A stretch of DNA of 64,000 bases, from IMG/VR virus record IMGVR_UViG_3300002231_004964; one strand, given 5' to 3'. The number at the start of each line of letters is the position of its first letter. Within the stretch, counting starts at the first letter, position 1. This document shows, piece after piece, positions 4,786-53,740 of this stretch. Origin of the DNA: an uncultured virus (IMG/VR IMGVR_UViG_3300002231_004964). Lineage: Duplodnaviria > Heunggongvirae > Uroviricota > Caudoviricetes. Below the pieces are notes generated by a model, which made no database searches, was not told the DNA's origin, and saw nothing but the letters and a program-made list of their open reading frames with translations. The position numbers and the translations under genes are program-made.

Positions 4786-6168
4786 CTAATCGCTTCGACG
4801 AGTAAATCTTTCGATAATTCCCATCCTTTCAATCGAAGCACCAATTCCAATGCCTAATATACCTGCGGCAAGGGCTACCCAAATATCATCCGAATCGGTC
4901 TGATTTAAAATCTTGGAAGGAATATCTTGTTTCATCTTCTCAGGGTTGTATTTCTTGCGCTTATATTGTCGAGTTTCAGTGGTAATCCCTGATTCTTCCT
5001 TGCTGTCGACCACAGTTTCTTCACGTTTATCCTCTGCTATCCTTTCGGCTCCATAGATATATCGCGAGGAAGTCATCTCGTTATACCGCATCGACTCATA
5101 TCTATCGTGAGTGTAACAAGGCATGTAAACAGTTCTACCGTCCATTTCATGCGTGTGAACGTCTTGACAACCGAGTTCTCGGGCTCGAGCCATGGCTTCT
5201 TCTCGGGTGTAATACATGTCTTGTCCTGTCATTTCAGCGTCGAATCGACTTGAGGTTGCTACGTTTTGCATCCAATTTTTTCCTGCTTGCTCCATACGAG
5301 TATCGTGACCAAGCATACCACTAATTCGAGACAGTTCATCGGTCAATTCATCTTCGGTGCCGACTAAAATTCGACCAGTTTGGAATCCGAACTCATCTAC
5401 ATTCCGACCTGGTGCAGTAGAATAATACATAGCACTAGGATTACCATCAACCGTTCCAATAATAAGAACATTATCATGGCCTTCGGCCTCTAATTTCACG
5501 CGCTTAGCCGCTTCTTCAGGTGTAATCGCTTGGTCTTTGACTAATTTACGAGGTGTGTGAGGCTTACCTGTTATAGTTCGAACCTTTTTACGAGTCTTAG
5601 GTTGTTCTTCAACCACTAAATAATCCAAAATATCGCCTTTTTGCTCGGCATCGAGAACCATTTCAGTTCCTTCTTGCCTTACATTTCGATTTCCAGTAGA
5701 GAATGGATAAGTAAACGAGTATTCCCACGCAACAGGATTTAAATAAACAATATACGCCCCTGTGCTTCCAATATCTCCCCAAAATCTAGGATTGTCTGCT
5801 CTCGGTATAGAAATAATTCCTTTATTTAATAAACCTTGCACAGGTCGACTCATAAATGGTTTATAACCTCTATTATCTACTTCTACATAAGCATATTCAT
5901 GATTATTATGGTAATAAGACATCTTCATCATATTCAAAGATTCCAATTGTTTTTTACTCAATCTAGGTTTTGACTCAGCCTCATAAGATTCGGCATAAGA
6001 TGAGTATCTTCCCATAGGTACACATTCATTGCAAACACATTCTACATCGTGTATATCGGGTCCATATCTTTGATTGCGCCATTCGTTCAAGCAAGCCATA
6101 CAATCAGGGTCTGCCTCACCATATTCTCTATCGCAAGTGCATCGATTCTCATTCATCATCGAGTACAT
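4786..6168 (-). CDS. Modular AE-motif protein: Cys-rich N-terminus, DUF3721-like GC..H..MPC..H module, C-terminal TM
   Basis: YAESYEAE, LDAE, LEAE, FDAE, YGAE separate modules; EEAMARARELGCQDVHTHEMDGRTVYMPCYTH; IWVALAAGILGIGIGA. Confidence 0.75.
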   Translation of the reverse strand: MYSMMNENRCTCDREYGEADPDCMACLNEWRNQRYGPDIHDVECVCNECVPMGRYSSYAESYEAESKPRLSKKQLESLNMMKMSYYHNNHEYAYVEVDNRGYKPFMSRPVQGLLNKGIISIPRADNPRFWGDIGSTGAYIVYLNPVAWEYSFTYPFSTGNRNVRQEGTEMVLDAEQKGDILDYLVVEEQPKTRKKVRTITGKPHTPRKLVKDQAITPEEAAKRVKLEAEGHDNVLIIGTVDGNPSAMYYSTAPGRNVDEFGFQTGRILVGTEDELTDELSRISGMLGHDTRMEQAGKNWMQNVATSSRFDAEMTGQDMYYTREEAMARARELGCQDVHTHEMDGRTVYMPCYTHDRYESMRYNEMTSSRYIYGAERIAEDKREETVVDSKEESGITTETRQYKRKKYNPEKMKQDIPSKILNQTDSDDIWVALAAGILGIGIGASIERMGIIERFTRRSD

Positions 6169-9534: not shown

Positions 9535-11964
9535 TTACTCACCCTTGGGAATAAACATATATGCCAAAGCCGCCGCTCCAACAAGGCCCAATGCTTTGAG
9601 CCAATTGGTTTTTTCATCATCGTCTTCGAACGGTTCAGTGAATGTATCAATGCCACGAGTTGCATTTAATTGGATGGCAGGGTCATTCATGGAACGACCT
9701 TGGTGCACTTCATCATACGGGGCTTCTAATCCGTTTGGATATCGAATAAATTCCACATTATCGGCAACTCCGACCTCACTTAGTCGCTTACCTGCCCATG
9801 AATTTTCACCATAACTAAATTGACCTTCTTCTAACCCCATAGGATTAGAATCCCAATCGTACATTTCGTTTAAGTCCTCAATAGTCATTTGAGCCTCTCG
9901 TTCGGCATCGGCTTGATTAGCGTATGTTTGTAAGACTCCATCAGTGACGTCACAGGCTTCCCAACCACCCATTTGATTTTCGGCTACGACATATAAGTCA
10001 TCCCAAGAATCTGATTTAAATGTTTCTTCCGCTCGAGCCTGGATGTTTTGTTGTCCTGAATAGTTTAAAGAAGCGTGGTCGAAATCGCCTTGAATGGCAC
10101 TCGATTCAGTAAGTTCTTTACTGGTGAAATCACCGAGAGAGGTGTCTTTAGTAATGTCCATCAAGGCATCAGCGCCTGCATAAGGGGCGTTAAAAGTTGT
10201 CGGTTTATCAATATATAAATTTTGCCCTTGGAAAGTTCGAGCAGCCTCGGCTAATCGAGTCAATTTAGAGTCAGTTTCAGCCGCTAATACCATCGGAGGT
10301 GGAGTGTAAATTTCCACAACTGTTCTATTTTCGCGTAATTCATCTTCGACTTGGTCGTAAACCGCACGAGTTAAACTGTAATATTTCTCGAAAGGACAAC
10401 TAACTCCTCGAAGGTAATTCGGGTTAGCACCTGCATTCGGGTCTGTGATTTCACAAACACCACCTAGGTCACTTAGTAATTGAGAAGCCGAGATACCACA
10501 AACGTTACATTCGATAAGAGATAAGTCACCCGAAGTAACGTCTTCTTTTTGAGCATTGGCCATGGCTTGCAACATCTTGAAACCAACTACACCCTCCATA
10601 GTCAATTCACGGACATCGACTACATCTAATCCCATAGAAGCGATATACGCATCTTGACGGTCATGAGACATCGTAAGCCAAATTTCGGGTGGGATGCCTA
10701 GTGCAACGCCTACTTGCGTGTCTACAGTTTCCAAGTCTTGGTCAGTTTGCTCTGATTTCATCACTCGTTCAGCCGCCTTTTCCTCTTCTTGGTCATGACT
10801 TTCATGTTCTTCTTCATCAGCCCATTCTCGGAACGAGATGTCACCATGTGCCCGAACTTCTTCATCTAACCACTCACGGAAAGACTCATTCGGATTTTGA
10901 CGGAACTCATGCTTTGATTCACCTAATTCAGTTTCACCCCATTCTTTCAGCGTCATTTCCGCATCGAAACCACGCTCTTTCATTTCATCCTTCCATCGGT
11001 TGGCTTCATCAGGAGTCATATCACCCGACAAAACCATATCTAAAGCAATACCTGCCCACGTACCAGGTTCGGGACGTCGAGACTTTTCGACGACTTCTTC
11101 TTCCACAATTTCAGGGAGAGGTTCTTCAACATCTTGGATTTCCTCTTTAGTCGCTTCTTCGCGCAATCTCTCTTGTTCTAACTCCCATGCGTCCATAGCA
11201 GATTCATCGAAATCTTCTACAAAATTCGGGTCATCGAATTCAGGGCGATAATCATCCATAGTAGGATGGGTGTAGCCGTATTCTCTTTTCCGAGCGGCTT
11301 CTTCCATTTCTCTCTCTTGTTCCGTAGCAAAAATTCCTTCGGGAGGAGAAGAAGGGTCATTGTCTTGGACGATGATGCCTGTCAAATCCGCTTCGGCTTC
11401 ACGTTCAGTCAAAGCGCGTCTAGCCTTGCGAGCGTAATCTTCGGCATCGTCTAGTGCTTCACCTTCATCGACATACTCATCCATGATGACGTCATCGATA
11501 GTTGTGCCGACATTAGTGTCCGCACCATAAGTAACACAAGGGTCTTTACCACATCCGCAGTTTTTCTTTTCAGCCTCGAATGCGTCGATATCACTCGGCT
11601 CATCACCCATTGGGACAGGCTCATCGCCACCAACATCTGCAGGAACTCCTGCATTGTCGGGTTCAGTAGGTCCACCAAGGTCACTCGGTTCGGTATCCAC
11701 AGGCGAATCTTCGGCGAAAACCTCCACCTTTTCGATAGTCATATCAGCCACAGGCATACCTGCAGTCATTTTAGCCGTAATTTCATCATACTTAGCCTTG
11801 GATACAAACGAGTTCGCCTTGTGAATCTTCTTCGTCTCTGGGTCGGTGTAAGTACCGTAAAGCCGATATCGAGTACCACGACTTCCTTCAACGGATGAGC
11901 CGTGTGTAATCTCGACCATTTCCTTACGTTTCAAACCTGCGACGTATAATTCCGTGGAGACCAT
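9535..11964 (-). CDS. Large acidic modular AE-motif protein with C-terminal tail anchor
   Basis: 809 aa; VFAE, FEAE, FDAE, KAAE, LAAE, ARAE; ends WLKALGLVGAAALAYMFIPKGE; TATA at 11987-11995. Confidence 0.8.
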   Translation of the reverse strand: MVSTELYVAGLKRKEMVEITHGSSVEGSRGTRYRLYGTYTDPETKKIHKANSFVSKAKYDEITAKMTAGMPVADMTIEKVEVFAEDSPVDTEPSDLGGPTEPDNAGVPADVGGDEPVPMGDEPSDIDAFEAEKKNCGCGKDPCVTYGADTNVGTTIDDVIMDEYVDEGEALDDAEDYARKARRALTEREAEADLTGIIVQDNDPSSPPEGIFATEQEREMEEAARKREYGYTHPTMDDYRPEFDDPNFVEDFDESAMDAWELEQERLREEATKEEIQDVEEPLPEIVEEEVVEKSRRPEPGTWAGIALDMVLSGDMTPDEANRWKDEMKERGFDAEMTLKEWGETELGESKHEFRQNPNESFREWLDEEVRAHGDISFREWADEEEHESHDQEEEKAAERVMKSEQTDQDLETVDTQVGVALGIPPEIWLTMSHDRQDAYIASMGLDVVDVRELTMEGVVGFKMLQAMANAQKEDVTSGDLSLIECNVCGISASQLLSDLGGVCEITDPNAGANPNYLRGVSCPFEKYYSLTRAVYDQVEDELRENRTVVEIYTPPPMVLAAETDSKLTRLAEAARTFQGQNLYIDKPTTFNAPYAGADALMDITKDTSLGDFTSKELTESSAIQGDFDHASLNYSGQQNIQARAEETFKSDSWDDLYVVAENQMGGWEACDVTDGVLQTYANQADAEREAQMTIEDLNEMYDWDSNPMGLEEGQFSYGENSWAGKRLSEVGVADNVEFIRYPNGLEAPYDEVHQGRSMNDPAIQLNATRGIDTFTEPFEDDDEKTNWLKALGLVGAAALAYMFIPKGE

Positions 11965-13076: not shown

Positions 13077-13439
13077 TTAAGGCATCATATTGAGTCCGAG
13101 CAAAACCGAGAGCACGGCGAGAAATCCTGTACCTGTGTATTTGACTACTTGTCCCGAAATGTAACGCTTCATATCAACTAATGGCTTTAATTCCGTTTTC
13201 ATAGTATTCATATCATCGCGCATGGTTTCAACCGAAGTTTGTAGGCCACGAACATCCATTTTAAGGTCGGCTACATCGGTTTTAACGAGTCCAATACTGA
13301 TTCGAGAATCATCCACGTAACTTCGGATATCTACCTTTAATTCTCGCATCTCATCATGCATCGATACTCGTTCATTGATTAAATCTGTTAAAGTCCCTAA
13401 TTTAGTCAAGACTTCTCGAATTTCCTCCGAGTCACTCAT
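13077..13439 (-). CDS. Coiled-coil protein with C-terminal TM
   Basis: Heptad pattern; ends GFLAVLSVLLGLNMMP; TATA near 13463. Confidence 0.7.
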   Translation of the reverse strand: MSDSEEIREVLTKLGTLTDLINERVSMHDEMRELKVDIRSYVDDSRISIGLVKTDVADLKMDVRGLQTSVETMRDDMNTMKTELKPLVDMKRYISGQVVKYTGTGFLAVLSVLLGLNMMP

Positions 13440-13488
13440 ACCTATCATTATTTAGGCTCAACTACTTAAACTTTACGAGAACATCTCA

Positions 13489-18951: not shown

Positions 18952-19062
18952 GAAAGAAAACGTAAATTGAAAAAGCCCCCNCTCCGTCAACCGAAGCAGG
19001 GGCTCTAACTTCCCCGCAGGAAGTTAGTTCATGGAAACTAAAACCTTTCAACTACTGTTGAC
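18952..19062 (-). terminator. Multi-hairpin 3' element ending in a GC stem plus U-tract
   Basis: TCAAC/GTTGA, CTAACTTCC/GGAAGTTAG and AGCCCC...GGGGCT stems followed by TTTT, downstream of 19067..19756. Confidence 0.6.
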
Positions 19063-24370: not shown

Positions 24371-24681
24371 AAGCCAGGAAAATAACTTCCGAGCGATTCA
24401 AAATCTACAATCTCAATATATCCATTACGAGACGTATCGAAATCTACATAAATACGGATTAAATCAGGACTAAAAACATCGGGATATTGGCGAGTAAGTT
24501 CTTGTAAGTTGTTATTTTGAAAAGTATATTGAACACCTTCCTCGTTCGGAGTTACATAAGTTAAATCGCCAAACCAAAGAATGAAGTTTTCTTGTGTTAT
24601 CCATTGACCCCACTCTTCCGCCCAAAAACTCTTATAATTTCTAGGCATTGCTATTGGCGTTTCATCAACCATTTCATTCAC
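24367..24681 (-). CDS. Hypothetical protein
   Basis: SFWAEE; overlaps neighbours. Confidence 0.6.
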   Translation of the reverse strand: MNEMVDETPIAMPRNYKSFWAEEWGQWITQENFILWFGDLTYVTPNEEGVQYTFQNNNLQELTRQYPDVFSPDLIRIYVDFDTSRNGYIEIVDFESLGSYFPGF

Positions 24682-25343: not shown

Positions 25344-25945
25344 TCAGTTATTTAAAGGCTTTGTCTGTAGCGAAAGAAGTTTTGTGAAATCTTTCGGCGC
25401 ACGGCAAGACCAAGTTCCATCCCGATTTTTCAATTCAGACCAAGCCGTCAAAACGTGACCTTTACGAGAAACCACATAACAAAAGACTAGAGCCTCATTA
25501 GATTCAGTATCTACGACAGTAACATCACGTAGGAAATGTGAATTAGTAGGAGTAGAAGCCGTTGATGTAGATTGGATTCTACCCAAAGTTTTTGTAAATC
25601 TTGTCGGTATAATTTCGGAATTGTAGTCGTAACTTTGGCCGAAACGGCATCTCTTTTAATACCACGTTGATACAAATCCTTTTTATGGTCTGCATTCACT
25701 TCGTGTGGATATCCCATTTGAATACGAGCAGTTGCCGTCAATTTAAGTGGTTTCTTCGGACTCGTCATTTGAATGACTTGTCTTTGAAATGTCGGCAATT
25801 CGTCTTGAATCCAATCAGGCCAATAAACGGCACGATGATAGTAATAAAATGGAACTGCATCAGTTTGAACATCGATGTAAAAATCACCAATTGTGAAACC
25901 ACTCATACTACTTGAGTAGTCAATCACCCATATAAAGGCTTTCAC
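25344..25945 (-). CDS. Hypothetical protein (two overlapping ORFs, probable frameshift near 25590)
   Basis: 25511..25945 and 25344..25586 overlap out of frame. Confidence 0.5.
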
Positions 25946-28378
25946 TCTTTCTTAACCATGTTTAGAATCTTATCATCGAGTCCAAGCATCTTACCACCGA
26001 CTAATATGGCGGCAACGCTAGCCACAAATCCTAAGCCCTTCCGAGTCATGATTTCGGCTGCTTTAGTATCAGGGTCAGGTCCTTCACGACTGCCGTCCCA
26101 TTGCAAAACACCTTGTCCAGAATCTGGAGCAGAGTTTGCAGAGCCTAATTTACCGACACCAACTTGATTAGCAGTCAAAGCATCAGGGAAATACTGGTCA
26201 CCATAAAGTGAACCGTCGTAATTCATTTCCGCCGATTGAACGAAAACATCCGACGGTGGAGCCGATGGAGAATCAACATTCACAATATCAAAGCCCGATA
26301 GAGTAGAGTCATCTAGTGGGTCATCACCAGAGGCCATTTCATTAGTAGGTTGAGAGCCAGATGGTTCCGCTCTCTTGTCTTCTTTCTCACACCCACACGC
26401 TTCGAAAGTTTCAGAATGTTTAGTACACCAATTCTCCGCCATAAGGTCTTGTCCAAAGTTTGAACCACTGCCGACAACGCCGAATTCAGCGTTCTTTTCA
26501 GCCTTACCTTTAGCAACGGCGTTACCAACAGTACGTTCCCAAGAGGAAATCCTACCGTCTTTGTCTCGGTCTGCTTTCCGAGGGTCGAAATCAGGATGGT
26601 CTTCGGCAAACTTGATATCATTCGGAGGGGCAGATGGTGAATCTACGGAGATAATTTGGTCGCCTGTTCCTGCGGAACTTGGACCTGCTGTCTTGGGATT
26701 CGCATCGGTCGGACTAGCGTCTGTAGGAGAATAACTTTCAGGAGAGGTCATTGGAGACTCAGCATTCTTTCGGCGTTGTCTTAGGAATCTTTCCATACCT
26801 GAACTCATCATGTCACGGTCATCAGGAGTCATCTCAGCACGTCGTAGTTGCATTTCGGAACGCTTCTTACGACGCATAATTGTTTTAGCGGAAACTCCTT
26901 CACGAGCCGCTTGTGCCATAACTCTTTTACCGTATTTCTTAACACCTAGCATCATAAGCCACTGCACCACCAATCTTCATAGCACGTTCTTCACTCATGC
27001 CTTCATCTTCATACTCATCAGCAACTTCATCTTGCAACTTGTCAAAAGCAGATTCTGCCATCATCATTCTATTGTTACGGTCCATAGTACCGACATTTGA
27101 ATATTTTCGGCGACCCATGTGTCGAGCCTCGCCTTCCGACATGTCTCGTCGGTCGTGCATACTCATTTTACCGTGATGACGACCACGGTTGCGCTCACCC
27201 ATACTTTCGTCGAGGCGAGCATTATATCCTTGATTGTGTTCGGCCATCATCCGATTACCCATATCCATCGTACCTACATTAGAGTACTTTCGGCGTCCCA
27301 TGTGGCGGGCTTCACCTTCAGACATGTCTCTTCGGTCGTGCATACTCATTTTACCGTGATGTCTACCACGGTTGCGCTCACCCATACTATCGTCGAGGCG
27401 AGCATCGTATCCTTGGTCATGAGCCTCTCTAACAAAGTCTCCACGGTGTCCTTGACCAGGTTTTAAATCAGCATTAGGAGTGTATCGGCGACGGTCAGCC
27501 GAGATACTTCTACCACGATTGGTTCGTCCAGTTTGACGTCCTTTACCATCGTAATGCACGTAGTCATCACCATCGATTACTCGATGTGGGTAAGAGTGTT
27601 TTGCCTCGGCCTGCTTGGAAATAGTTTCAGCCAACCATTGTCCATCAGACACAGGGGTTGGATTAATACCTTCTACAGCCTTACTTGTTTCGGCCGAGAT
27701 ATTATCGGAAGCAGTTTCGGAATGGAATGTTTCAGCGGCTAGAGTTTCAGCGTATCCTGTAGTGGTGTAATCCTTGGTTCGCTTTGAACCCTGGGAATAT
27801 TCCTTCATTTTCATCATATTTTTATTTCGACGACGTCGATTAGCCCTGCGGAGGTCTCGCTTACTAGGCTTTTTCCTAGGTGCGGAGAAGGTTTCGGCAG
27901 CCATACTTTCAACAGTAGCCATATCAGCCTCGTTAACTCCCTCAATGAAACTAACAATGGCGTCTTCCTTTTCTTCTTCGTCCTTAGCCGCAATAATTTC
28001 TGTGACTACGAAATCTTCTAAGTCCATTCCTGGAGATTCATAATATCCTTCTTGTCCAACGGCGAACTCGAATGGATAAGCCATTCCAAGAACAACATCT
28101 TCATCACCCATTTCTTCACCTTCTACAATAACCATAGTAGGTTGTTCAACGTTATCTACACGGATAGAAGTTGGACGGAAATTATGGGCGTCAGTCTTAC
28201 CAATTTCGAAATAAAGAGAAGCATGATAAGCCTCTCCATCACTTACTTTTTGCCAATTCACCTTATCAGGCGATACAATTCTAGAATCTTCATAAACTTG
28301 GTCACGTGCACTCCACGAATCGTTAGAGAACGTCCACCAATCTTGGGACCAAACATATACTGCAAAAACATCTTCCAT
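25942..28378 (-). CDS. About 810-aa polyprotein-like AE-motif protein with internal repeats, EF-hand-like motif and C-terminal TM (frameshift near 26947)
   Basis: Joined reading GAVAYDAGVKKYGKRVM; more than 15 xAE sites; KADRDKDGRISSWE; GLGFVASVAAILVGG. Confidence 0.7.
27056..27422 (-). repeat. Tandem intragenic duplication of about 183 nt (61 aa)
   Basis: H.QGY.ARLD.SMGERNRGRHHGKMSMHDRRDMSEGEARHMGRRKYSNVGTMD twice. Confidence 0.95.
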
Positions 28379-28393
28379 AATCAATCACTTACC

Positions 28394-35321: not shown

Positions 35322-35696
35322 CTAAGGAGTCGGATTTCCTCCAATGTTTAAACCAGACTCATCAAAAGACTCACCCAACATTCTAATTACTCCAAAAACA
35401 CCAAATCCAAGGAATCCTAAGCCCAAAATTGTAAAAGGATTCATAGTAGTGTCTTCTGCAGCCTTAACACGACTGTAATTGTAAGAAGGCTTTTTCCACT
35501 CAGCAGATTTTGATTCTTCTGCCATATAGATGGTGGAATTTGTAGGTTCAGGGGTAGGGTTTATCATGGCAATTGTGTCCATAGGCTCACCTGCAATATA
35601 AGTAGGGCTCATAGGACTAGGCAAAGACGATGGAGTTACAGTAGAATTATCAAAAGTAGTAAAGTGAGCAAAATCGGACATGCCTAGATTTACCAT
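35322..35696 (-). CDS. AE-motif protein with near-C-terminal TM
   Basis: YMAEE, KSAE, KAAED then PFTILGLGFLGFGVFGVI; TATA near 35719. Confidence 0.7.
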   Translation of the reverse strand: MVNLGMSDFAHFTTFDNSTVTPSSLPSPMSPTYIAGEPMDTIAMINPTPEPTNSTIYMAEESKSAEWKKPSYNYSRVKAAEDTTMNPFTILGLGFLGFGVFGVIRMLGESFDESGLNIGGNPTP

Positions 35697-35738
35697 ATTT
35701 ATCACTCAACCCTTCCGATACTTAAAGACTTCCTTTCC

Positions 35739-36949
35739 TCAATCATCTCGAAGAAGTGCCAAGACGACGGTGGCGGTGGCTAGAAAACCACCTGTTAAAA
35801 CTAAGCCGAACGTGTAAGGGTTCTTAGTTTTTTCATCCTCTTCCGCTTTCCTTTCTACTACTGGGGCAGACCAAGTTAGAGTAGGTTCATCTAGTTTAGG
35901 AGACATCCAATCGGGTTCGGTGAGGACGGGTGAAGTCACAGGAAGTTTCATCGGGGTGACTTCTGTAGAAAATGTATTGAAACTACTCGTGAATTCCGAG
36001 GCTTTATTTTCCATCACAGGAGTTTCGACGACATCGTAAGCCGTGTGCATTCCAATGTCTTTTTGAGGTCGAACTTCAATGTTTTTACCCTTGTGTTCCG
36101 TTCGTCGGTCACCACGAATCTTACCAATCCATAAGAAACCATCATCTTTCAAGAATTCAGGTGAGTAAAATGATTACATTCACCAGATTGAGCGAAAAGC
36201 GATACCATCTACTAGCCTATCAATCCGCTCTTTATCCGTTCCATAAGATATTTGGTCTTTAATAGCAATCAAGTCACGCGTTTGCATGACGTTGTGAATA
36301 ATGTAAGTACTGGCTTGGGAGAGGGCTTCTTTCGTGATAGCCGCAGGTCGTTGTGTAACCATACAAACACCATAGCCTAAAGCACGACCCAATTTACATA
36401 ATCTAATAATAGGTGCAGTAGCTAGGATTTTCTCTTTTGTAATGGAACGAAATCTTGACACTCTTCGAAAATAGTTAGTAATCCTTTGCCCATTTTGGCT
36501 TGTATTAACGATTCACAATAATCGGCAATCATTTCTTGTTGAGCGTCTAAAGTAAGATTACTAATATCGATAATAAGTGATGAATTAGATTCTTTTAATT
36601 GATTAACTAATTTAGTACAATTAATTGACTCATTTAGTTTCGGAGAAATCTTTTCAATTCCTTCTAATGAGGATAAATGACCGTGAGCGTCGAGCGGGTC
36701 GAAACACACGAATTGAAGACCGAGCCTTTCGAATTCTTCCATCAAAACACCAGCCGTCCACGATTTACCACTTCCACGCATTCCTGTTACGAAGGAAACT
36801 TGATAAATGAATTCTAAAGGAAAGGAAAAATCATCGGCGAGGATAAACTCATCCCTTTGAGCAGTTCGAGGTTCTTCTCGTTGATACTCATCTAACACAT
36901 CGGAANGTTCTCTAGCCTCTCCGACGCCCCAACTTGTGGTTTCATCCAT
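35739..36949 (-). CDS. HerA/FtsK-superfamily ATPase with C-terminal membrane anchor (candidate packaging ATPase); frameshifts near 36445 and 36170-36200
   Basis: Walker A GMRGSGKS, Walker B TIFEECQ, LGRALGYGVCMVTQRP; continuation KIRGDRRTEHKG and TM in 35739..36152; TATA at 36972-36980. Confidence 0.8.
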
Positions 36950-37405: not shown

Positions 37406-38476
37406 TCATTCTACTTTATCATTTTCTTCTAATTCTTCAAAGACGAATCCTTCAGAGCGTAATTCTTCAACTTCTTCATCCGATAGATAAACTATGTCAT
37501 CAGATGTTTCTGCTTCTCCCACTGATTCAACCATGAAGTCATCCATATCAATAGAAATATCAGTTAAGGCTACTGGAGTAGTTGTAACATCTGCCCTTTT
37601 TGCTTCGACTCTAGGAGTAGTTGATTCTGTATTCGGTTTGTTAAATCCGCCTGTTCCTGCAGCCAAAACATCGGCAGCATCATTAGCCGACAAACCTGCT
37701 TCGGCAATTAAGTCATCCATACTCATAAACGCTCCTGTTGTAGGAACTAAAGAGTCGTCTAAATTTAAACCTTGACTTAAATCATACTGGTCAGTTTTAA
37801 CGGTTGACTTTCCATTTAATCGGTCGGCTTCGGCTTGAATGTCTTCTAAACTGCCGTAACCCAATGTGGAATCATTACCCATGGTTTGAGGCTTAGCACC
37901 TAAGACGGCTTCCCAATCTATTCCTTGTGTCGGGTCCCAGCCTGCAGGCAAACTAGCCCCTAATGTTTCTTCAATTTCGCGTTGTTGAGCCGAACGTGTA
38001 TCAACAGGTTCGGTTGAGACGGGTTCATCGACCACCTCTTCTCCAAAAGACATCATATCATCCGCAAACAAGTCTGAGAAATCTCCACTAGATTGAGCCG
38101 ACTTAATGGCATCCAGATAAGCACGGTCTTCATCTTCTAATTTCTTTCTTTGACCTGCTAAATAGTCAGTCAGCCCTTGAATAACAGGAGCAACATCGCC
38201 TAAGACGGTAATTAAATCTCCTGCCGTTTGACCTGTTTTGCTTTGAGCGACAGATTTACCGACATTATACTTTTGAGCCATATTGGCGAGTGGAACTAAA
38301 ACCTTTTGAGTTAATTCAGGATTTAGATTCAATGAATCTGCTAATTCATCGATTGACTTTCCTCCCGATAAAAGGTCGATAATATTGTCAGTCGTAGCAT
38401 TACCTGTCGAAGCAGGTTTACTAGGCTCTCGAGGAGTATGATTGCGCTCTACACTATTGCCAAAGTCATTAGACAT
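37406..38476 (-). CDS. Acidic hypothetical protein
   Basis: 356-aa ORF; TATA near 38499. Confidence 0.7.
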   Translation of the reverse strand: MSNDFGNSVERNHTPREPSKPASTGNATTDNIIDLLSGGKSIDELADSLNLNPELTQKVLVPLANMAQKYNVGKSVAQSKTGQTAGDLITVLGDVAPVIQGLTDYLAGQRKKLEDEDRAYLDAIKSAQSSGDFSDLFADDMMSFGEEVVDEPVSTEPVDTRSAQQREIEETLGASLPAGWDPTQGIDWEAVLGAKPQTMGNDSTLGYGSLEDIQAEADRLNGKSTVKTDQYDLSQGLNLDDSLVPTTGAFMSMDDLIAEAGLSANDAADVLAAGTGGFNKPNTESTTPRVEAKRADVTTTPVALTDISIDMDDFMVESVGEAETSDDIVYLSDEEVEELRSEGFVFEELEENDKVE

Positions 38477-39002: not shown

Positions 39003-39692
39003 TCACCGCCAACCATTGGCGCGATTATACTCGCTAAGGAATTCACTATCCATACCCATTTTTTGCCGCATCATTTTCTGCTTAGCCGTTTCAGCATCGG
39101 CGGCTTTTTTGCGTTGATGCTCAGAACGCTTTACTGTCTCGGCTAATTGACTGACAGTTTCGGCTTGGTTCTCAATAAGTCCCTTTAATTCATCGATTTC
39201 TTTGGATTGCTTGGAAATAACTGCGGCCGTGGGTAAACCCACTACTAAAGCCCCAACGACGAAACCAGGTAAATGTTTTTGTATCGCCCCTTGTGTCGCA
39301 GGAGCGACTAAATCACTAGTCTCTGCCCGAGACATTACTTCATTGTAAACAGTTTCTAAATCCGACGCAAAATCTTCACTGGATTTAGGATTAGTAATCA
39401 TATCGGAAAGAAGCGTTTTCAACTGGTCGGTAGGAACTTGCCCCACATTAACATTTTGTTTAACAGATACAGACTCAGCCGCAAATGCTTTAACAGGCTC
39501 ACCGACAATATGCTCTAGTATTTTGCTAAATCCTCGAACTCCTTTTTGGCGAGCGAATAAGATGTATTTACCAGGCCCAAACGGTTCGACGAGAGCAGAA
39601 AAATCTTGTGGTTCTTCATCCATTTTAATTAGGTCTTTCGTACCTGAACCTTTGACGCCTTTGACGTATCGACGAACAAAGTACTTAATCAT
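39003..39692 (-). CDS. Protein with central TM, coiled coil and AE motifs
   Basis: FAAES, SRAET, LAET, DAET; TATA near 39716. Confidence 0.7.
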   Translation of the reverse strand: MIKYFVRRYVKGVKGSGTKDLIKMDEEPQDFSALVEPFGPGKYILFARQKGVRGFSKILEHIVGEPVKAFAAESVSVKQNVNVGQVPTDQLKTLLSDMITNPKSSEDFASDLETVYNEVMSRAETSDLVAPATQGAIQKHLPGFVVGALVVGLPTAAVISKQSKEIDELKGLIENQAETVSQLAETVKRSEHQRKKAADAETAKQKMMRQKMGMDSEFLSEYNRANGWR

Positions 39693-39802
39693 ACGACCTA
39701 GTTTGGTTGTTCCTGCTACTTAAAGGATTGCTTCGTCAAGATGCTTAAAANNGGCTAATCATTAGGATAGAATAATAGGATATTAGGATGCTATATCCTT
39801 AT

Positions 39803-40224: not shown

Positions 40225-40776
40225 TTACTCACTGTCCTGCAATCGAGCAACTAGGTCTGCCTTTTTACCCGAAACAGGAAGGTCTTTCTCACGGAGAAGT
40301 GACTTAAGGTCGGCGACTGTCATATCGTTGTAATCACGAACCATGGTGTCTTCAATCATCTTGGCTTGCTTTTCGCGATATTCATCTAAGTCGATATCTA
40401 AAGCATCGGCCACCAATAGACCCATTTCCTTTTGATAGGCTTCTTTCGCTTCTGGCTTAGTTAGGCCATCGGCTAAAAGTTCTCGAAGACGAGTCATCTT
40501 GTTATTTTCCATCTCAATCGCGTCTAAAATAGATTGAGTTAACGGGTCAACCTGTACTTCGATATCGGCAGGGTCCATTTCGAAAAGGGATTCGATTTCT
40601 CTTGACAACATATCAGTACTAGGCGCAGTAATTTGAGCGAACTCTTCAACATCATCAACTAAATATTCTCCACCTTGAGGTCCTGTGGAAACCTTTTCTA
40701 CCCATTCATAGGCTTGATTCTTTGTTACGTGCAGTCCAACTCTATCCCAAAATCTTCGTTCTGTCATAGTAATCAT
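40225..40776 (-). CDS. SAP (HeH) domain protein
   Basis: C-terminal MTVADLKSLLREKDLPVSGKKADLVARL. Confidence 0.85.
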   Translation of the reverse strand: MITMTERRFWDRVGLHVTKNQAYEWVEKVSTGPQGGEYLVDDVEEFAQITAPSTDMLSREIESLFEMDPADIEVQVDPLTQSILDAIEMENNKMTRLRELLADGLTKPEAKEAYQKEMGLLVADALDIDLDEYREKQAKMIEDTMVRDYNDMTVADLKSLLREKDLPVSGKKADLVARLQDSE

Positions 40777-40785
40777 TGATGATTA

Positions 40786-41172
40786 CTAAGTATTTAATAC
40801 TTCTACACAAGGGAGCCATGCTTCACTACGATTACCGTTCTTAATTCCGAAAACACGACTCGTTTGTAAGGTAGTTGTTTGGCGAACAGTATCCGAGATT
40901 AAACGTCCTGAGCATTCTAGTCCGAAGTCAACAAACTGATGACGATATCGCATTTGGTCTTCGACTGACATATCGATAGGAGTTAGAATAGACTCGCCTA
41001 AGAAAGTGTTCCAACGCAATTCACCAATCATAACGTGTAAACCTGTTTTAGAAGACGATACACGAATCCAAATATTTTCAATCGGAAAAAGAGTAGTTAG
41101 AAGATGTAAACCAGATTGCACGAGTTCATCTTCAAGGCTAGCATCATCCCAATCAAAAGTTAATCCTGTCAT
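40786..41172 (-). CDS. Small protein with AEP/primpol-like motifs
   Basis: LTFDWDD and SSSKTGLHV. Confidence 0.45.
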   Translation of the reverse strand: MTGLTFDWDDASLEDELVQSGLHLLTTLFPIENIWIRVSSSKTGLHVMIGELRWNTFLGESILTPIDMSVEDQMRYRHQFVDFGLECSGRLISDTVRQTTTLQTSRVFGIKNGNRSEAWLPCVEVLNT

Positions 41173-41177
41173 ATTAA

Positions 41178-42334
41178 TCACTTATACGTTAGCGTAATAT
41201 GATTAGTAGATTTCTTCTTCCTTTTTAAATCTAATCCTTCTATGTTGGGGTAATCATAACGCTCTCCGTCTAAGTAGTAGCCATCGGCCTTTAACTTAAG
41301 GTCGTCGGTAAACGGGATGTGAATTTGTAAGGTAGTAATATCGTCTTTCGATTGCTTGGAAATAATGTGACGTGGCGTAAGTTCTAAATTAGGACAAACG
41401 ACGCGACCGAAATCCACTAAGCGGTCGGCTTTTGGTTCAAAGGGAAATTTCGGAACGCCACAAAGTTTAATACCTAGGGAATTAGTAACCGCACCGTAGT
41501 GAGATAAATAAGGTTGTTGATTATCGCGCTCTAATTTCAGTAAAGCCACGGCTTTATTGGTGTCGGCTAGTTCCCATGTTTCGTCATCAAATGCAGGGAC
41601 AAGATTATTGATAACTACATTCGCCACAGAAATATCGAGCGATTTCAAAAACTTAAATCGTTCTTTGTACACTCTTGGTATCCTGCCTCGGTAGCAATGC
41701 TTACTAGGTTTACTTGCACATGAGACGGGTTTCTAATTAATTCTCTAATTCGTAGCATTAAATTACGAGTATTTTCCAAAAATTCCACAAATGGATTTAA
41801 ATCATCCTTCCTTCGCATCATGAATCCTTTTAAGTTCATAATCTTAGCCCTCATCCGTAAGATACGCAAAATAAAGCCTTCAATGGCTTCGGGACAAGTT
41901 AACGCCTTTAAAGTATGTCCTGTCGGTGCAGTATCGAAAACAATAAGGTCGAACTCAGACCCAACGGTTAAATTTAAGATTTTCTTAAGTGCGAACACTT
42001 CATCCATACCAGGAAAATTAAACCAATCGGAAAACATGTCTGCATCGACACCAGGCATTAAGGTAGCAAAGGAATCTTGCATAAGATTTTGCAATTCACC
42101 GAAAAACTCTTCGGCTTCGGTTGAAGCGTTGATATTAGCAGCCCAAAAATTATCCGAAATATGAGTGGGTTTGAATCCAACAGGAACGCCCAAAACATCT
42201 TCGGTCGAATGTGCAGGGTCGCTACTAACTAAGATGGTTCGATAACCATTTTCAGCCCAAAATTGCGCCGTGGCAGCAGATGTACTCGACTTTCCGACAC
42301 CACCCTTACCAGTAAAGAGAACGAGTCTAGTCAT
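41178..42334 (-). CDS. arsA: ArsA/Get3(TRC40)-family ATPase (frameshift near 41665)
   Basis: GKGGVGKS, SSDPAHS, FPGMDE, FDTAPTGHTL, VVINN; single domain. Confidence 0.9.
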
Positions 42335-42367
42335 GTCGTAGGATAGTTGACGTTCGTATTTAATACT

Positions 42368-42694
42368 TTACGCCCACTCGGAAACGAAATCATCCGAGAA
42401 TTCTGTCTCGAATTCTGTATCGACGTAATAAGAGTCAAGGGACCCTAAAATACTAATTTCAATCGGAACTCCCTCTAAGGTAGCAGGGTAATTCTTAATC
42501 TCGACCTCTAACATTTCAACTATCCCTCGAACACTTTTAGAAACGTCGATATCAATGGTAGCAAAATCACTAGTTTTAAATTTCAAGTCACGACTAGTTA
42601 TCTCAATACCTTCAAAATATAAATCGGCAGGAACGGCGAACAACAATTTTTGTTGTTCTCCAAGTAACAAAGCCTTGGAGTCACGATACTCCAT
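42368..42694 (-). CDS. Acidic hypothetical protein
   Basis: ORF; TATA near 42717. Confidence 0.6.
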   Translation of the reverse strand: MEYRDSKALLLGEQQKLLFAVPADLYFEGIEITSRDLKFKTSDFATIDIDVSKSVRGIVEMLEVEIKNYPATLEGVPIEISILGSLDSYYVDTEFETEFSDDFVSEWA

Positions 42695-42715
42695 ATATAA
42701 ACATAGTTAATACGA

Positions 42716-43936
42716 CTACTTAATTGTTTCCCAATAATCTGCATCTGGAGAAAAGGCACGAGGAAAAACGAAAAGAGAGGTCATATCCACAAATTCACCA
42801 TCTCGATGGATTAAATCTCCAAATAAAATAAAGGTTAAGTAAGAATCATCCTCAAACATGACTTTAGAGACACCACTAAACGCTCCATTTCGATGTGGGC
42901 GTTGCTCTATTCGAGCAATCGGCCGACCATAACCTGGTGCATTCCAATCATCGGCTAATTCTTGTGCGGCGACGAGATTGTTGTATTCTCCCATCATTTT
43001 AACACCTTCGGAAGTTCTAACATGAACTCGGTAAACTGCAGGTTGATAAGGCAAATAATTAGTTAAGATAGTTTCAAACTCATCATGGTCATGGTCATCA
43101 TCGTCGTGGTCATGGTCATGGTCATGGTCATCTTCATTAGGGGCGCCTTCTAAAACCGTCTCAAACGCCTCGAAGATAGTGTGTAATTGCAGTTCAGTTT
43201 GAGTAATGACTTCATCAGGTGTCAAGATATCTAAAGCGACAGGATACGGACCTTCACCAAATCCCTCGATATTTTCTATGAATTCAAAACGGTCAGAACC
43301 GACACGAGAAATGAATTGACGAAGATGACGAGGAGAAAGAATAAATCGAGATTCTAATTCCGTAGTTGCCGAACCTTCGGCCAAGTCCATAAGGAAATCA
43401 TAAGCCTTAGCGGCTTGATAATCCTCTGAATTCCAATCAACATCCTCCCNTTCGAAATCATCACGTCGAACGACGTCACCAGGTGGGTCTGACCAATCGA
43501 CATCATCCCAACTCTCAGCCCCGAAGTCTTGTGGCACTAATCCCATCTTTTGAAGTTCGCGTAACATTATCATTTCCGCCGCATCGGGACTAATTAAACC
43601 CATAGAAATTTCACGGTCTAAGCGCATATCTAATTCCTGCAACTGTGCACGAATCATCATATCATGACGCATCAAGACTTGGTCGACAATTCCTTTCGGT
43701 TTACGACGTTGCACAATGGTGGCTTCAAAGGATTCCGCACTGTAGTATCTTTCTCTCCAATGTACTATCTCTTGACCTGTTTTCGGGTCATGAGCATATT
43801 CACACGTGTTACAGACGAAAAAACGGAAGTCATATGGATTCTCACCAGGCTCCATCTGTCGCTTTTTATAGGCGGACATCCAAGTCCGATTCTTCTTACA
43901 GTTAGGACAATACATTCGTTTGCCTGTTTTAGCCAA
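42716..43936 (-). CDS. Modular AE-motif protein: Zn ribbon, His/Asp tract
   Basis: CPNC/CNTC; YSAESFEA, FGAES; EDDHDHDHDHDDDDHDHDE. Confidence 0.7.
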   Translation of the reverse strand: MAKTGKRMYCPNCKKNRTWMSAYKKRQMEPGENPYDFRFFVCNTCEYAHDPKTGQEIVHWRERYYSAESFEATIVQRRKPKGIVDQVLMRHDMMIRAQLQELDMRLDREISMGLISPDAAEMIMLRELQKMGLVPQDFGAESWDDVDWSDPPGDVVRRDDFEXEDVDWNSEDYQAAKAYDFLMDLAEGSATTELESRFILSPRHLRQFISRVGSDRFEFIENIEGFGEGPYPVALDILTPDEVITQTELQLHTIFEAFETVLEGAPNEDDHDHDHDHDDDDHDHDEFETILTNYLPYQPAVYRVHVRTSEGVKMMGEYNNLVAAQELADDWNAPGYGRPIARIEQRPHRNGAFSGVSKVMFEDDSYLTFILFGDLIHRDGEFVDMTSLFVFPRAFSPDADYWETIK

Positions 43937-48127: not shown

Positions 48128-50710
48128 TTACTCCCCCAAGAATCGATGAATGTTCAACAGACCCTCGGCGAATTTTTGCACATCGGCTACTGTCGGAGCG
48201 CCGTAAAGTTCATATTCCGCATTTTGATTAGACCCATAATCATAAGAAATAATCGAATCTAAATATTTCATATTATCGGCCATCATGCCCTCTCCTGTGT
48301 AGGCTCGTAGAGTTTTACTAGCCGATTCCAACGATTCAGCCGACTTGACTTGTTCTAAAACGGATTCCGCACTAAACACTTCCTCAGATTGGAATTCGTC
48401 GATAAAAGCAGTTGGGAATTGTATTTGTGGTTCGTCACCGAATTGCAAGTTCTTAACTAATTGGAACATCTCTTGATTTACCGTAATGCTTGGCACTAGG
48501 GCTAAACGCAATAAGTTAATAACCTTGGGCGATGGCGATTTCACTTGGCGGAAATACTCGTCTAAAGCGTGACCTTCATATTTGAATAAGTATTGACCCG
48601 CTACATTCACAGCAGTACGAGAAATGGCCTTGTCTTCGGGCAGGGTTTTACGAGAACGCATATCGATAGCACCACCATCACTGTCTTCATAGTATTTTCG
48701 ACTTAAAGCACGGGCTAAATCACTAAAGTCGAACGGACGTCCACAAACAGTACACCCTGTACCAACACCCATTGGTGGTGGAGGGTCAACCGAGACTCCG
48801 TTGGCTTCGAATTCTTCAATAAATTTCGGACTAAATGCAGGAATACGTCGTGTCGGAGGAGATAAGCCGAAATCTTGAATATCCATCACACGAGCACGAA
48901 TAGTACCTTCAGGTACTAATATATCTCGCAAAAACGCTTCAACTTTCTCAGCCACATTGCTTCGTTTTTTACCTTCGACTAAGTATTGCGCCATGTATGC
49001 ATTCAACGCATCGGTATGAAACCCGTTCCACTGATTACCTTCTTCATCTACCCACGGAACAACGACTAACCACCAGTAGGCTAATGTCCGACCAGTTTTT
49101 CGAACGCCATACGGATTCGACTTAGATTTAAGAGTTGAAGTCGCAACACTATCGATTTGTTGTCGAGTTTCTTCAGGTACTAATTCAATGAAATCACGTA
49201 AATCATCTGTAGTATCGATAGCAACTCCTTGAGAAATTGCTAAGTCAGTGTACGCGGCTGTGCGAGCCGACTTTACAGCACTATCGTACGCATTTTTAAC
49301 TTCTTCGAAACGGAAACGATTAGCCACATCAAACGGCCGAGCGCAAATTATACAATCTGATTCCGTCCAATTCTCGGGTTCATCACGCGGTGCTTCGAAA
49401 GTTTCTGCTTCTAAGGCCTTTTTACCACCTGTCATTTGACGATTTAGCGAATTAAGGGTCGTGAGAGGTGCGTCGATATTACCTCGCTTCATTCCCATAT
49501 CTTTCCACCATTGTTCGATGGCTTCAGGTCGATAACCACGAGCCCTCATACCTCTAACAGTGAACAATTCAGGGTCATCCCACCCCGAATAAACCCCATC
49601 TTTGATTCCTTTAGCGTACGCAGAAGACGAGAATGAGATAGGAACTTCGTTTTCATCCAAGACATTAACTCGACCCCAATATTCAACTTCAGGATAGTCC
49701 CATCCAAAGAATTCATATAAAATTTGTTGCTTTCGTGTCGAGGCTTGTAAATCAATACCTCGAATAATGTGAGTAATTTCTAATTCATAGTCATCAATAG
49801 CCGATTGGAAATCTAAAACAGGCCAACAAACATCATCAGGTTTTCTAGGGTGACCTCCCAATTGCATTCTAAATAAAACGAAATCACGCAAAGCAGGGTC
49901 GGGTGCATTAGGGTCGCTACGAATACGTAGGACGGCTTCCCCAGGTTGGAAACGTCCTTCAATCATATCCTCAAACAATGCTCTATTTTCTTCTACGGAA
50001 CGGTCTCGATTTGGATTAGGCAATCCTGCGGCTTTTAATTCTGCCGCTTCTTCACGAGAAAGAGTGTCGACGTAAGCACCACCTAGATTGATTAATTGAT
50101 AAGCCCACTCATAATAGATATCAAGACGGTCACTAGCATAATAGATTTCATCAGGCATATCCCCAGTTAACCATTCGATATCTTCGGGAATCATTTGATA
50201 AGCCGCCAATAGAGGCGGTTTCGTACCCATTCCTGTATCATCAAATCTCAGGATGAAATCACCACCATACTTATCTGCATAGGCTCGATTAATAGTGACA
50301 CCACGACTATGCCCTAGAGTCAAGGGCGCATTAGGATTCGGAGCGAATCGAACACGGAAGTTGCCTGTTTCGGCATTTGGAAGTTCCTTCAAAACTTGCT
50401 CTCGCTTTTCCTTTGGACCCTCCATTTTTCGAATCCTCGCCACGGTTTCCATTCCGACAGGACCTAATCGAGCCAGATACGAAATAGAATCCTCCCGACC
50501 TTCTTCATCGTACATGGTGATAGCCTCAGCCATGGCTGCATTGACGTATTTTGGAAGATACTTACCAAATCGTTGCAGAGTAGGTTGTGAACCCATCATA
50601 CGACCCATAATAGAGCCCATTTGAGGTTTACCATTATACTCGATAGTGTTGCCGAGGGCAAAAGCCATAATAATGTCGGCTTGCTCAGGCGTTGGTGTCC
50701 ACTCATCCAT
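48128..50710 (-). CDS. gltX: Archaeal-type glutamyl-tRNA synthetase catalytic domain fused to two CxxC repeat domains (no anticodon-binding domain)
   Basis: RVRFAPNPNAPLTLGH, LRFDDT, YYASDRL, PALRD, FQSAIDD, THIIRGIDL, GWDDP, RGYRPEAI; TATA at 50733-50741. Confidence 0.9.
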   Translation of the reverse strand: MDEWTPTPEQADIIMAFALGNTIEYNGKPQMGSIMGRMMGSQPTLQRFGKYLPKYVNAAMAEAITMYDEEGREDSISYLARLGPVGMETVARIRKMEGPKEKREQVLKELPNAETGNFRVRFAPNPNAPLTLGHSRGVTINRAYADKYGGDFILRFDDTGMGTKPPLLAAYQMIPEDIEWLTGDMPDEIYYASDRLDIYYEWAYQLINLGGAYVDTLSREEAAELKAAGLPNPNRDRSVEENRALFEDMIEGRFQPGEAVLRIRSDPNAPDPALRDFVLFRMQLGGHPRKPDDVCWPVLDFQSAIDDYELEITHIIRGIDLQASTRKQQILYEFFGWDYPEVEYWGRVNVLDENEVPISFSSSAYAKGIKDGVYSGWDDPELFTVRGMRARGYRPEAIEQWWKDMGMKRGNIDAPLTTLNSLNRQMTGGKKALEAETFEAPRDEPENWTESDCIICARPFDVANRFRFEEVKNAYDSAVKSARTAAYTDLAISQGVAIDTTDDLRDFIELVPEETRQQIDSVATSTLKSKSNPYGVRKTGRTLAYWWLVVVPWVDEEGNQWNGFHTDALNAYMAQYLVEGKKRSNVAEKVEAFLRDILVPEGTIRARVMDIQDFGLSPPTRRIPAFSPKFIEEFEANGVSVDPPPPMGVGTGCTVCGRPFDFSDLARALSRKYYEDSDGGAIDMRSRKTLPEDKAISRTAVNVAGQYLFKYEGHALDEYFRQVKSPSPKVINLLRLALVPSITVNQEMFQLVKNLQFGDEPQIQFPTAFIDEFQSEEVFSAESVLEQVKSAESLESASKTLRAYTGEGMMADNMKYLDSIISYDYGSNQNAEYELYGAPTVADVQKFAEGLLNIHRFLGE

Positions 50711-52395: not shown

Positions 52396-53740
52396 TCATC
52401 CGATACTTCCATCCATTTCCAACTCTAAAAGTTTGTTCAACTCTACTGCGTATTCCATTGGTAATTCTTTTGTAAAGGGTTCGAAGAATCCATTAATGAT
52501 GAGTGCCTTNGCCTCTGCTTCGGTATACTCCCCTACTCATTAGATAAAATAACTGGTCGTCTGAGACCTTTGATACGGATGCCTCATGTTCTGTAATTGC
52601 TGAATGACTTTCTACCTCCATTGTAGGGTAAGTATCTGATTGTGAATTTCCATCCATCAAGAGAGCATCACAAACTACATTAGAGCGGCAGTTCTTTGCT
52701 TTGCGGGATATTTTTACCAACCCTCGGTATGAAGTACGCCCTCCATCCATACTAATACTTTTAGAGAGGATGTTTGAAGTTGTGTTTGATGCAAGATGAT
52801 GAACTTTGGCTCCTGTGTCTTGATGCTGTCCTTCTTTTGCATAAGCAACAGAAATTACTTCTGCATGGGCGTTTACTCCCTTTAGAAGAACGGCAGGATA
52901 TTTCATTGTTAAGGACGAGCCAATGTTCCCATCTACCCATTCAATAATTGCATCCTTGTGGGCAACTGCTCTTTTGGTAACTAGGTTGAAAATATTATCC
53001 GACCAATTTTGAATAGTAGTATAACGGATGTGCGCTCCCTCTAATGCTACTAATTCTACTACGGCTGAATGCAAACTGTTGGTAGAAAATGTTGGAGCGG
53101 TGCAACCTTCAATGTAGTGAATAGATGAGCCCTCATCAGCCACGATAAGAGTGCGTTCAAATTGACCCATATTTTCGCTAGCGATGAGAAAGTATGCTTG
53201 CACAGGTATGTCCACCTTTACGCCTTTAGGAACGTAGATGAATGAACCTCCAGACCATACGGCAGTATTCAAAGCAGAGAATTTATTATCTGCACTTGGG
53301 ACTACACTACCAAAATACTGTTTTACTATGTCAGGGTGTTCTCGTAAACCTGAATCCATATCCATGAAAATAACACCTTGACTTTCTAAATCTTCCCTAA
53401 TGGAATGATAAATAGACTCACTTTCGTATTGTGCAGTTAGTCCTCCTAACCATTTCTGTTCGGCCTCTGGAATGCCTAATGCATCAAAAGTCTGTTTGAT
53501 TTTATCAGGAACTTGGTCCCAATCTTGTTGGGTTTCTCCAAGGACACGAAAATAGCAAATATCATTGAAATCTAAGGTATTCAATTTTTCAGTATTTCCC
53601 CATTGAGGTGTAGGTCGTTTGACAAACTGTTGGTATGCTCTAACACGAATATCCGTCATCCAAGTAGGCTCACGCTTGTAATTAGAAATAGCCCTCACTA
53701 CTTCTTCAGATAGCCCGTCATGAAGTTCATAACTTTCCAT
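52396..53740 (-). CDS. sufB: Fe-S cluster assembly scaffold SufB (frameshift near 52530)
   Basis: [50 protein letters not shown]; alternate frame ends [27 protein letters not shown]. Confidence 0.95.

Follow-up and report, generated by a model that had tools for sequence, protein, structure and literature searches.

Split Get3-like gene and its product

A 64,000-nucleotide stretch from an uncultured virus (IMG/VR record IMGVR_UViG_3300002231_004964), called the window here, carries a Get3-like gene at 41178-42334 on its minus strand. As recorded, the gene consists of two overlapping open reading frames (ORFs) in different frames (Table 1). The initial annotation of this locus, which proposed a viral Get3/ArsA ATPase serving many tail-anchored proteins, had overlooked the frameshift. 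A protein search returned 6,747 relatives of the Get3-like protein. The closest 18 (85-96% identical) were mostly 384 amino acids (aa) long and continuous across the junction as ...YQECQRTIKFLKSLDI... Alignment to L094, a metagenome contig whose Get3-like protein is 86% identical to that of the window, revealed two additional single bases in the window, 11 nucleotides apart. Contigs of four public sequencing runs were aligned to window positions 40700-42800. Each run held a contig more than 99% identical (7-8 differences in 2,101 bases) with one letter fewer at 41657 and at 41668, a comparison that cannot exclude rare variants. The contig sets of two runs (X3 and X4) were identical, apparently one data set filed twice, and we therefore count about three independent assemblies rather than four.

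Comparison with L094 gave a pN of 0.108 and a pS of 0.728 for the Get3-like gene, with both in-frame parts under purifying selection. The ratio dN/dS (omega) of the part after the shift was about 0.09, with dS saturated. We conclude from these alignments that the natural gene encodes an intact 384-aa protein under purifying selection. Because near-identical contigs of other runs lack both bases, the split in this record most probably reflects an error or else a rare variant. A true pseudogene in this genome, with both insertions real, would agree with the record as it reads, and other window genes are also split relative to a relative (the HerA-like ATPase, an AAA ATPase and a 319-aa homologue). 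The uninterrupted contigs in four runs, the selection on both halves and the 13 ambiguous bases in the window make this explanation quite improbable. Those ambiguous bases and the several split genes suggest that the record is error-prone, and ORF-level readings therefore need care. The ambiguous bases lie at 18981, 19073, 19145, 36906, 39751-39752, 43450, 52510, 54834, 60636, 60856, 60877 and 60883. Relative to the related contig G002 (described below), 1184-1552 is split from 1809-2144 and 13489-13782 from 13724-14887.

Table 1. Window coordinates of the Get3-like gene, its parts, neighbouring genes and candidate client proteins
Feature	Position	Strand	Basis or remark
Get3-like ATPase ORF 1, 229 aa	41645..42334	-	P-loop, switch I, DTAPTGH switch II, client-binding helices; Pfam and TIGR00345
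Get3-like ATPase ORF 2, 164 aa	41178..41672	-	rest of ATPase core and C-terminal beta domain; other frame; aligns to residues 227-384 of intact 384-aa relatives
Two extra single bases splitting the gene	41657 and 41668	-	alignment with L094; absent in near-identical contigs of four runs
P-loop GKGGVGKS, residues 9-16	42287..42310	-	invariant in 17/17 aligned family members
Switch II / signature DTAPTGH, residues 134-140	41915..41935	-	invariant in 17/17 aligned family members
Helix 7, TRC40-insert-like loop and helix 9 region, residues 140-200, methionine-rich	41735..41917	-	alignment, model, Met counts
HSP20/alpha-crystallin-like C-terminal beta-sandwich, last ~65 residues	41181..41375	-	models and VIA-align
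131-aa gene, GTG start overlapping the Get3-like stop	40786..41181	-	conserved neighbour; AEP-like primase Atlas cluster, score 0.88, lead only
Conserved 229-aa protein, one internal transmembrane segment (TM), charged C-terminal tail helical by eye	39003..39692	-	ORF and TM scan, synteny
HerA/FtsK-type (DUF87) ATPase in three ORFs	35739..36949 (36422-36949, 36180-36461, 35739-36152)	-	last piece bears C-terminal anchor
Tail-anchor-like 127-aa protein, TM 93-111	35322..35705	-	Kyte-Doolittle scan
Tail-anchor-like 343-aa ORF, TM 314-332	25942..26973	-	overlaps ORF 26939-28384; true gene limits unsure
Tail-anchor-like 123-aa protein, TM 101-119	13077..13448	-	Kyte-Doolittle scan
Tail-anchor-like 460-aa protein, TM 428-446	4786..6168	-	Kyte-Doolittle scan
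809-aa protein, weakly hydrophobic C-terminal stretch	9535..11964	-	1.53, below 1.6 threshold

ORF 1 matched Pfam ArsA_ATPase (5.1e-49, profile positions 1-223 of 305) and NCBIfam TIGR00345 GET3_arsA_TRC40 (153.4 bits, cut-off 135), and ORF 2 alone had no family match in Pfam or NCBIfam scans. P0005, an intact relative of the window protein, was used for full-length family tests. It scored 186.4 bits against TIGR00345 and 1.7e-57 against PF02374, and stayed below cut-off for the ArsA equivalog TIGR04291 (102.1 bits, cut-off 650) and for the NosAFP/Get3d model NF050088 (79 bits, cut-off 325; residues 1-161 only). The single-domain ArsA/Get3 ATPase of the initial annotation is thus borne out by profiles above cut-off and by intact 384-aa relatives. 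Sequence matches in the PDB were led by Chlamydomonas ArsA1, followed by archaeal Get3 3zq6 (143.7 bits) and 3ug6 (129.8); E. coli ArsA 1f48 reached 89.5 bits in the same search. An AlphaFold model from a 17-row alignment had a predicted local distance difference test score (pLDDT) of 85.6. Foldseek ranked 3zq6 and 3ug7 (E ~1e-22) highest, then 8had and many Get3 structures, including some with bound tail-anchor cargo, with ArsA 9nbo only at rank 34. Archaeal Get3 (M. thermautotrophicus 3zq6, M. jannaschii 3ug6/3ug7) is the best single-domain sequence match and the best fold match (TM score 0.58 on query, 0.71-0.75 on target), and belongs to the same broad clade. In contrast to it, the viral protein is virus-encoded, lacks the CXXC motif and carries an extra C-terminal beta-sandwich, at 28-30% identity.

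The motifs GKGGVGK[ST] (P-loop), DPAHS (switch I) and DTAPTGH were invariant across 17 members of 48-96% identity, and all are present in the window ORF. Viral proteins were aligned with proteins translated from named genomes, including the two-domain ArsA of L048. No viral family member had a cysteine at the Cys columns of this ArsA, taken to be the metalloid ligands. The region following DTAPTGH (TRC40-insert and extended helices 7-9) was present in viral and archaeal proteins and gapped in both ArsA halves. It includes the Met/hydrophobic motif ILRILRMRAKIMNLKGFMM that the initial annotation had singled out. The model places helices at 140-168 and 180-200 with a low-confidence loop (170-176) between them; the aligned Methanothermococcus homologue has an insert longer by about 8 residues. 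The TRC40-insert is a feature of Get3 that ArsA lacks, as defined in PMC6593721. In P0005, the predicted client helices (residues 70-124 and 140-200) hold 10 of the 11 methionines. The same region has 4-10 methionines per protein in the 17 members and is 47% hydrophobic. Fungal Get3 has at least four methionines in its client-helix region (PMC6593721).

In the full-length model the C-terminal residues (~320-384) fold into a beta domain of seven strands, with pLDDT above 90. Modelled alone from a 14-row alignment, the domain reached a pLDDT of 81. Foldseek returned nothing at E ≤0.001 for the isolated domain, and its high-probability rows were small heat-shock proteins. VIA-align against 48,161 chains ranked the AgsA alpha-crystallin domain (ACD) first (Z 7.2), then the ACDs of NosGet3d (6.6) and AtGet3d (6.5), values that are only middling by the program's own guidance (Z <8). 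These three aligned over 61-63 residues at a root-mean-square deviation of 2.7-3.1, and rows at Z ≥5 were mostly small heat-shock, ACD and CS domains. Sequence comparison was less telling: PF17886 (ArsA_HSP20) matched no viral protein at E up to 1, with weak matches elsewhere in L010 (0.0035) and L039 (0.12), and hhalign of viral against Poseidoniales C-termini gave a probability of 2.7%, no sequence-level support. The two extensions align with each other in the multiple alignment. On the evidence of the models, the protein ends in an HSP20/alpha-crystallin-like beta-sandwich, an arrangement shared with Get3d and the Poseidoniales homologues. Get3d (Arabidopsis At1g26090, 8elf; Nostoc All4481/NosAFP, 3igf/8egk) shares the Get3 core with a C-terminal ACD and the absence of CXXC, and supplied the second and third best chains for the viral domain. 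It is more distant in sequence, as judged by the NF050088 score and by PDB E-values of 8e-10 to 1e-8, compared with 1e-41 for archaeal Get3. The viral family also appears to conserve a segment that lines up with the A-loop region of archaeal Get3, a loop reported to be missing from Get3d (PMC10248533).

Phylogeny was computed with FastTree (128 rows) and with IQ-TREE (LG+C20 PMSF, quick search, 57 rows); rows below 280 aa were dropped and loci subsampled, and both trees were built without eukaryotic Get3. In FastTree, 23 viral-family rows formed one clade (support 100), sister (support 89) to ten Poseidoniales-type rows and one Myxococcota row. Both groups nested in a mostly archaeal single-domain clade, apart from both ArsA halves. 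IQ-TREE likewise grouped the viral proteins in one clade (support 100), separate from the ArsA halves (support 99). Its position among the archaeal groups was a polytomy (support 87), and the Poseidoniales-sister placement was not kept as a resolved branch. Among the matches listed from one genome per GTDB species, the best cellular proteins were 27-36% identical and mostly archaeal. Poseidoniales proteins (L012, L039, L043) match the viral one in their single domain, insert, lack of CXXC, ACD-type C-terminus and length (387-422 aa versus 384). They differ in sequence, with about 35% identity in alignments confined to residues 1-250 or 1-310 and the hhalign result given above. By architecture alone the viral protein also resembles archaeal 'Group 11' (single domain, insert, no CxxC, alpha-crystallin domain; PMC6593721, Table 1).

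Other identities within this ATPase superfamily were considered. A ParA-like ATPase that partitions or positions the genome together with the DNA-binding proteins encoded next to it would suit the adjacent SAP-domain protein and possible AEP-like protein, and a PHROG partition protein of ParA type matched weakly (1.9e-12) over the N-terminal 138 residues only, which include the P-loop. Full-length matches were instead to Get3/ArsA and took in the helical client subdomain that ParA and MinD lack, and ParA-type NCBIfam models gave about 28 bits against cut-offs of at least 180, leaving this identity very little probability. No ars gene (arsD, arsB/ACR3, arsR, arsC) was found in Pfam scans of the window ORFs, where the initial annotation had also seen no ars operon, or of the 140 G002 ORFs scanned. 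An arsenite-pump ArsA carried as an auxiliary arsenic-resistance gene, as suggested by source annotations ('arsenite-transporting ATPase') and by the Pfam family name ArsA_ATPase, has a negligible chance of being correct and was ruled out on every feature tested: bacterial ArsA (E. coli R773 ArsA, 1f48; L. ferriphilum 9nbo) shares the superfamily fold and the DTAPTGH signature, but its two fused domains (~580 aa), metalloid-binding cysteines and ars operon are all missing here, the viral protein has the insert region that ArsA lacks, and it branches apart from both ArsA halves. On phylogeny, fold, insert and missing cysteines, the gene as read from sequence and model is a member of the Get3/TRC40/ArsA family and Get3-like rather than an arsenite-pump ArsA. 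This corrects a label that could otherwise pass for an arsenic-resistance gene in marine viromes.

Carrier element and candidate host

Five IMG/VR contigs of 84-166 kb, two of them with inverted terminal repeats, encode a homologue 44-51% identical to the Get3-like protein. They were found with an alignment as query; a single-protein query gave no match. L004 and L005 are near-identical in the Get3-like gene region. An independent 139-aa marker retrieved the same five contigs, which marks the Get3-like gene as a core gene, and had no match in GenBank phages. The order downstream of the Get3-like gene is conserved: 131-aa protein, SAP-domain protein, 139-aa protein, 229-aa TM protein, 121-aa, 356-aa and 148-aa proteins, then the HerA-like ATPase. 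Among 21 metagenome loci of the family, 14 had more than 1 kb of downstream flank and 13 of these kept the conserved neighbour, L111 being the exception.

The window is colinear with G002, a related linear 160-kb contig that was analysed whole (L098 duplicates it). G002 encodes TBP, PCNA, the PolD large subunit DP2, PolX, ERCC4, an Hjc-like nuclease, RNR, UvdE and three C5 methyltransferases. DP2 (L091:6627-10190, minus strand) matched three Pfam domains at E 1e-83 to 1e-105. A PolB family search in five related viral records gave no match. This gene content points to an archaeal carrier, a large marine virus or virus-like element with linear dsDNA, since the window is colinear with a linear contig encoding PolD, TBP and PCNA. 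In 20 sequencing runs from 9 studies, 75% or more of the words sampled from the window stretch were present; all but three of these runs were labelled marine, seawater or aquatic metagenomes, and no RNA data set was listed among them. One relative came from a Tara sample with <0.22 in its name, which we take for a size fraction. No capsid protein was identified, and a search for capsids of nucleocytoplasmic large DNA viruses had no match in the five viral records or in the controls. The conserved 356-aa protein (37406-38476) had no Pfam or PHROG match, and Atlas gave only an unnamed viral cluster. As for the host, Poseidoniales are our leading guess.

Tail-anchor-like proteins and proposed role

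Tail-anchor-like ORFs were counted with a Kyte-Doolittle scan (19-residue window ≥1.6, a single TM ending at most 30 aa from the C-terminus). Among ORFs of at least 60 aa, they numbered 8 of 95 in the window and 15 of 217 in G002, compared with 22 of 973 in 80 cellular loci and 0 of 108 in Poseidoniales loci. At a minimum of 100 aa the counts were 6 of 75, 11 of 165 and, for the 80 cellular loci, 7 of 770 (Fisher p = 1e-6, odds ratio 8.3). Such ORFs were thus 3- to 8-fold commoner than in cellular loci, in agreement with the tail-anchor-rich proteome proposed initially. Five of the seven ORFs named in that proposal (4786, 13077, 25942, 35322 and 35739) were recovered. The ORF at 9535 stayed below threshold, and nothing tail-anchored ends at 24678. 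The N-terminal signal said to be lacking was indeed absent in six of the seven ORFs checked, with a signal-like stretch in 25942. MW495066.1 (Microcystis phage MaAM05) was rejected as a large-phage control, reading like a bacterial chromosome; as a cellular control it had 1 tail-anchor-like ORF of 135. It carries ribosomal proteins, SecE/NusG, SecDF, Smc, MurJ and flagellar genes (1-50000, 100001-150000).

One candidate client is the HerA/FtsK-type ATPase (DUF87), which matches HerA structures at E 6.5e-7. In relatives it is a single ORF of 394-450 aa ending in a hydrophobic stretch followed by basic residues. This C-terminal anchor exceeded the threshold in four of five viruses (G002, L096, L097 and the window) and fell below it in L001. 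The ORF listed as '35739' in the initial annotation is the C-terminal piece of this split gene. A C-terminal membrane anchor is unexpected for an ATPase of the HerA/FtsK kind. A complex prediction that combined a pair of Get3-like chains and two ATP with the 45-residue anchor of ORF 35739 scored 0.01 against a mark of 0.32, in a single job without controls that carries no weight for or against binding.

AE motifs had been described as usually lying just before the anchors, with AE cleavage later releasing the cargo. Both proposals find little support. 'AE' occurred within 30 aa before the anchor in only 3 of 8 window tail-anchor-like ORFs (6 of 23 with G002 added), and its density upstream of anchors (8 in 690 residues) was not clearly above background (505 in 72,329); Pfam and PHROG scans matched no protease family. 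A string K-A-A-E does stand 8-12 residues before the C-terminal anchor in 25942-26973, in 35322-35705 and in G002 66822-67229, with K-A-E-E in its place in 35739-36152. It may be a shared motif or reflect shared ancestry.

We hold with moderate confidence, by analogy with archaeal Get3, that the protein is a Get3/TRC40-type ATPase of an archaeal virus that would capture viral tail anchors and deliver them to a membrane. The intact 384-aa chain comprises the Get3 ATPase core, a helical methionine-rich client-binding subdomain and the HSP20/alpha-crystallin-like beta-sandwich. Like its archaeal counterparts, it would work as an ATP-driven homodimer. Its methionine-rich groove is predicted to capture the hydrophobic C-terminal anchors of newly made viral proteins, the tail-anchored HerA/FtsK-type ATPase probably among them. 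Anchored clients would be kept soluble and then passed to the host membrane or to a virus assembly membrane. Archaeal Get3 homologues do bind tail-anchored proteins (PMC6593721).

Several observations weigh against this targeting role. The TRC40-insert by itself does not predict tail-anchor targeting (PMC6593721). Both the TM scan and the calling of ORFs were crude, and a few of the ORFs counted are probably spurious. Pfam scans of the window and of G002 found no receptor of the Get1/2-like or YidC/DUF106-like kind. The CXXC zinc motif, which lies at the dimer interface in methanogen and Asgard Get3, was not found in the viral family, which has a 12-residue insert there; it is also missing from the aligned Poseidoniales proteins. 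Nor is the motif universal, since plant Get3a, Get3d and some archaeal Get3 do without it (PMC6593721, PMC10248533). The 316-aa family members of metagenome loci L105-L108 lack the C-terminal beta-sandwich and keep the same neighbours. The immediate neighbours of the gene look related to DNA and not to membranes, namely the SAP-domain protein and the AEP-like lead. Poseidoniales, the candidate hosts, own a homologue, and the need for a viral copy is therefore unexplained. Lastly, the label 'virus' rests on IMG/VR membership, inverted terminal repeats, gene content and the <0.22 Tara label.

A general holdase is a less likely but appreciable alternative. The groove and the alpha-crystallin-like domain would then keep hydrophobic or aggregation-prone viral proteins soluble during mass synthesis, with no dedicated membrane targeting. 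The HSP20/ACD-like fold of the C-terminal domain and the missing receptor both suit this role, and the literature lends it some weight, also to the detriment of targeting: a general chaperone role is suggested for Get3 homologues that bear an alpha-crystallin domain, and yeast Get3 is reported to act as a holdase (PMC6593721, PMC10248533). However, the excess of tail-anchor-like ORFs and the tail-anchored ATPase suggest clients of one particular class, the 316-aa members have no ACD-like domain, and AtGet3d binds tail-anchored proteins without needing its ACD (PMC10248533).

A host take-over factor, which would compete with or poison the host Get3-like pathway or redirect host tail-anchored proteins, is improbable. 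In its favour, the homologue of the candidate hosts has the same architecture at only about 35% identity, and the viral clade is old and divergent. There is no evidence for interaction with host factors, and the fully conserved catalytic motifs fit an active enzyme rather than a decoy.

The favoured reading, a viral tail-anchor targeting factor, can be extended. This lineage of large marine archaeal viruses might run its own GET-like pathway, in which the Get3-type ATPase loads virion-assembly anchors, including that of a HerA/FtsK-type packaging ATPase, via a virus-encoded receptor onto a virus-specific membrane. We regard this extension as doubtful. The conserved 229-aa protein, with one TM and a charged tail, is a speculative receptor candidate. 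If the extension is correct, it describes the first pathway for membrane-protein targeting to be encoded by a virus.

Literature searches listed no paper on a Get3 encoded by a virus, supplements being outside their scope. By term search, ArsA/Get3 is not mentioned in a Poseidoniales-virus paper (PMC11706807) or in one on an archaeal virus database (PMC13465236); the 'ArsA' of PMC11936420 is an author's name. GenBank phages (50,697 records) gave only three weak partial matches to the Get3-like protein, none close, and BFVD held no Get3-like fold. Should the targeting role be true, viruses can carry a post-translational membrane-targeting chaperone besides membrane proteins. It would bear on the ways in which membranes are built or decorated by uncultured viruses of marine archaea, and would provide a compact CXXC-less Get3 with natural clients on the same genome.

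Further genes of the element

The 131-aa protein that follows the Get3-like gene contains the string SSSKTGLHVMI. Two genes upstream of the Get3-like gene lies a 406-aa protein (42716-43936), 65% identical in L094, with N-terminal paired CxxC strings that look zinc-ribbon-like by eye and a His/Asp run, DHDHDHDHDDDDHDHDE. The element also carries an 860-aa protein with a class I Glu/Gln-tRNA synthetase catalytic domain (48128-50710) and a SufB/SufD Fe-S assembly protein (52493-53740); SufB matches in GenBank phages were generic. A 582-aa protein (53788-55536) has bacterial TSP3 (calcium-binding) repeats and an N-terminal TM. It is 72-91% identical to its relatives over ~155-200 residues, a figure that the repeats may inflate, and other genes of the same relatives are only 30-60% identical.

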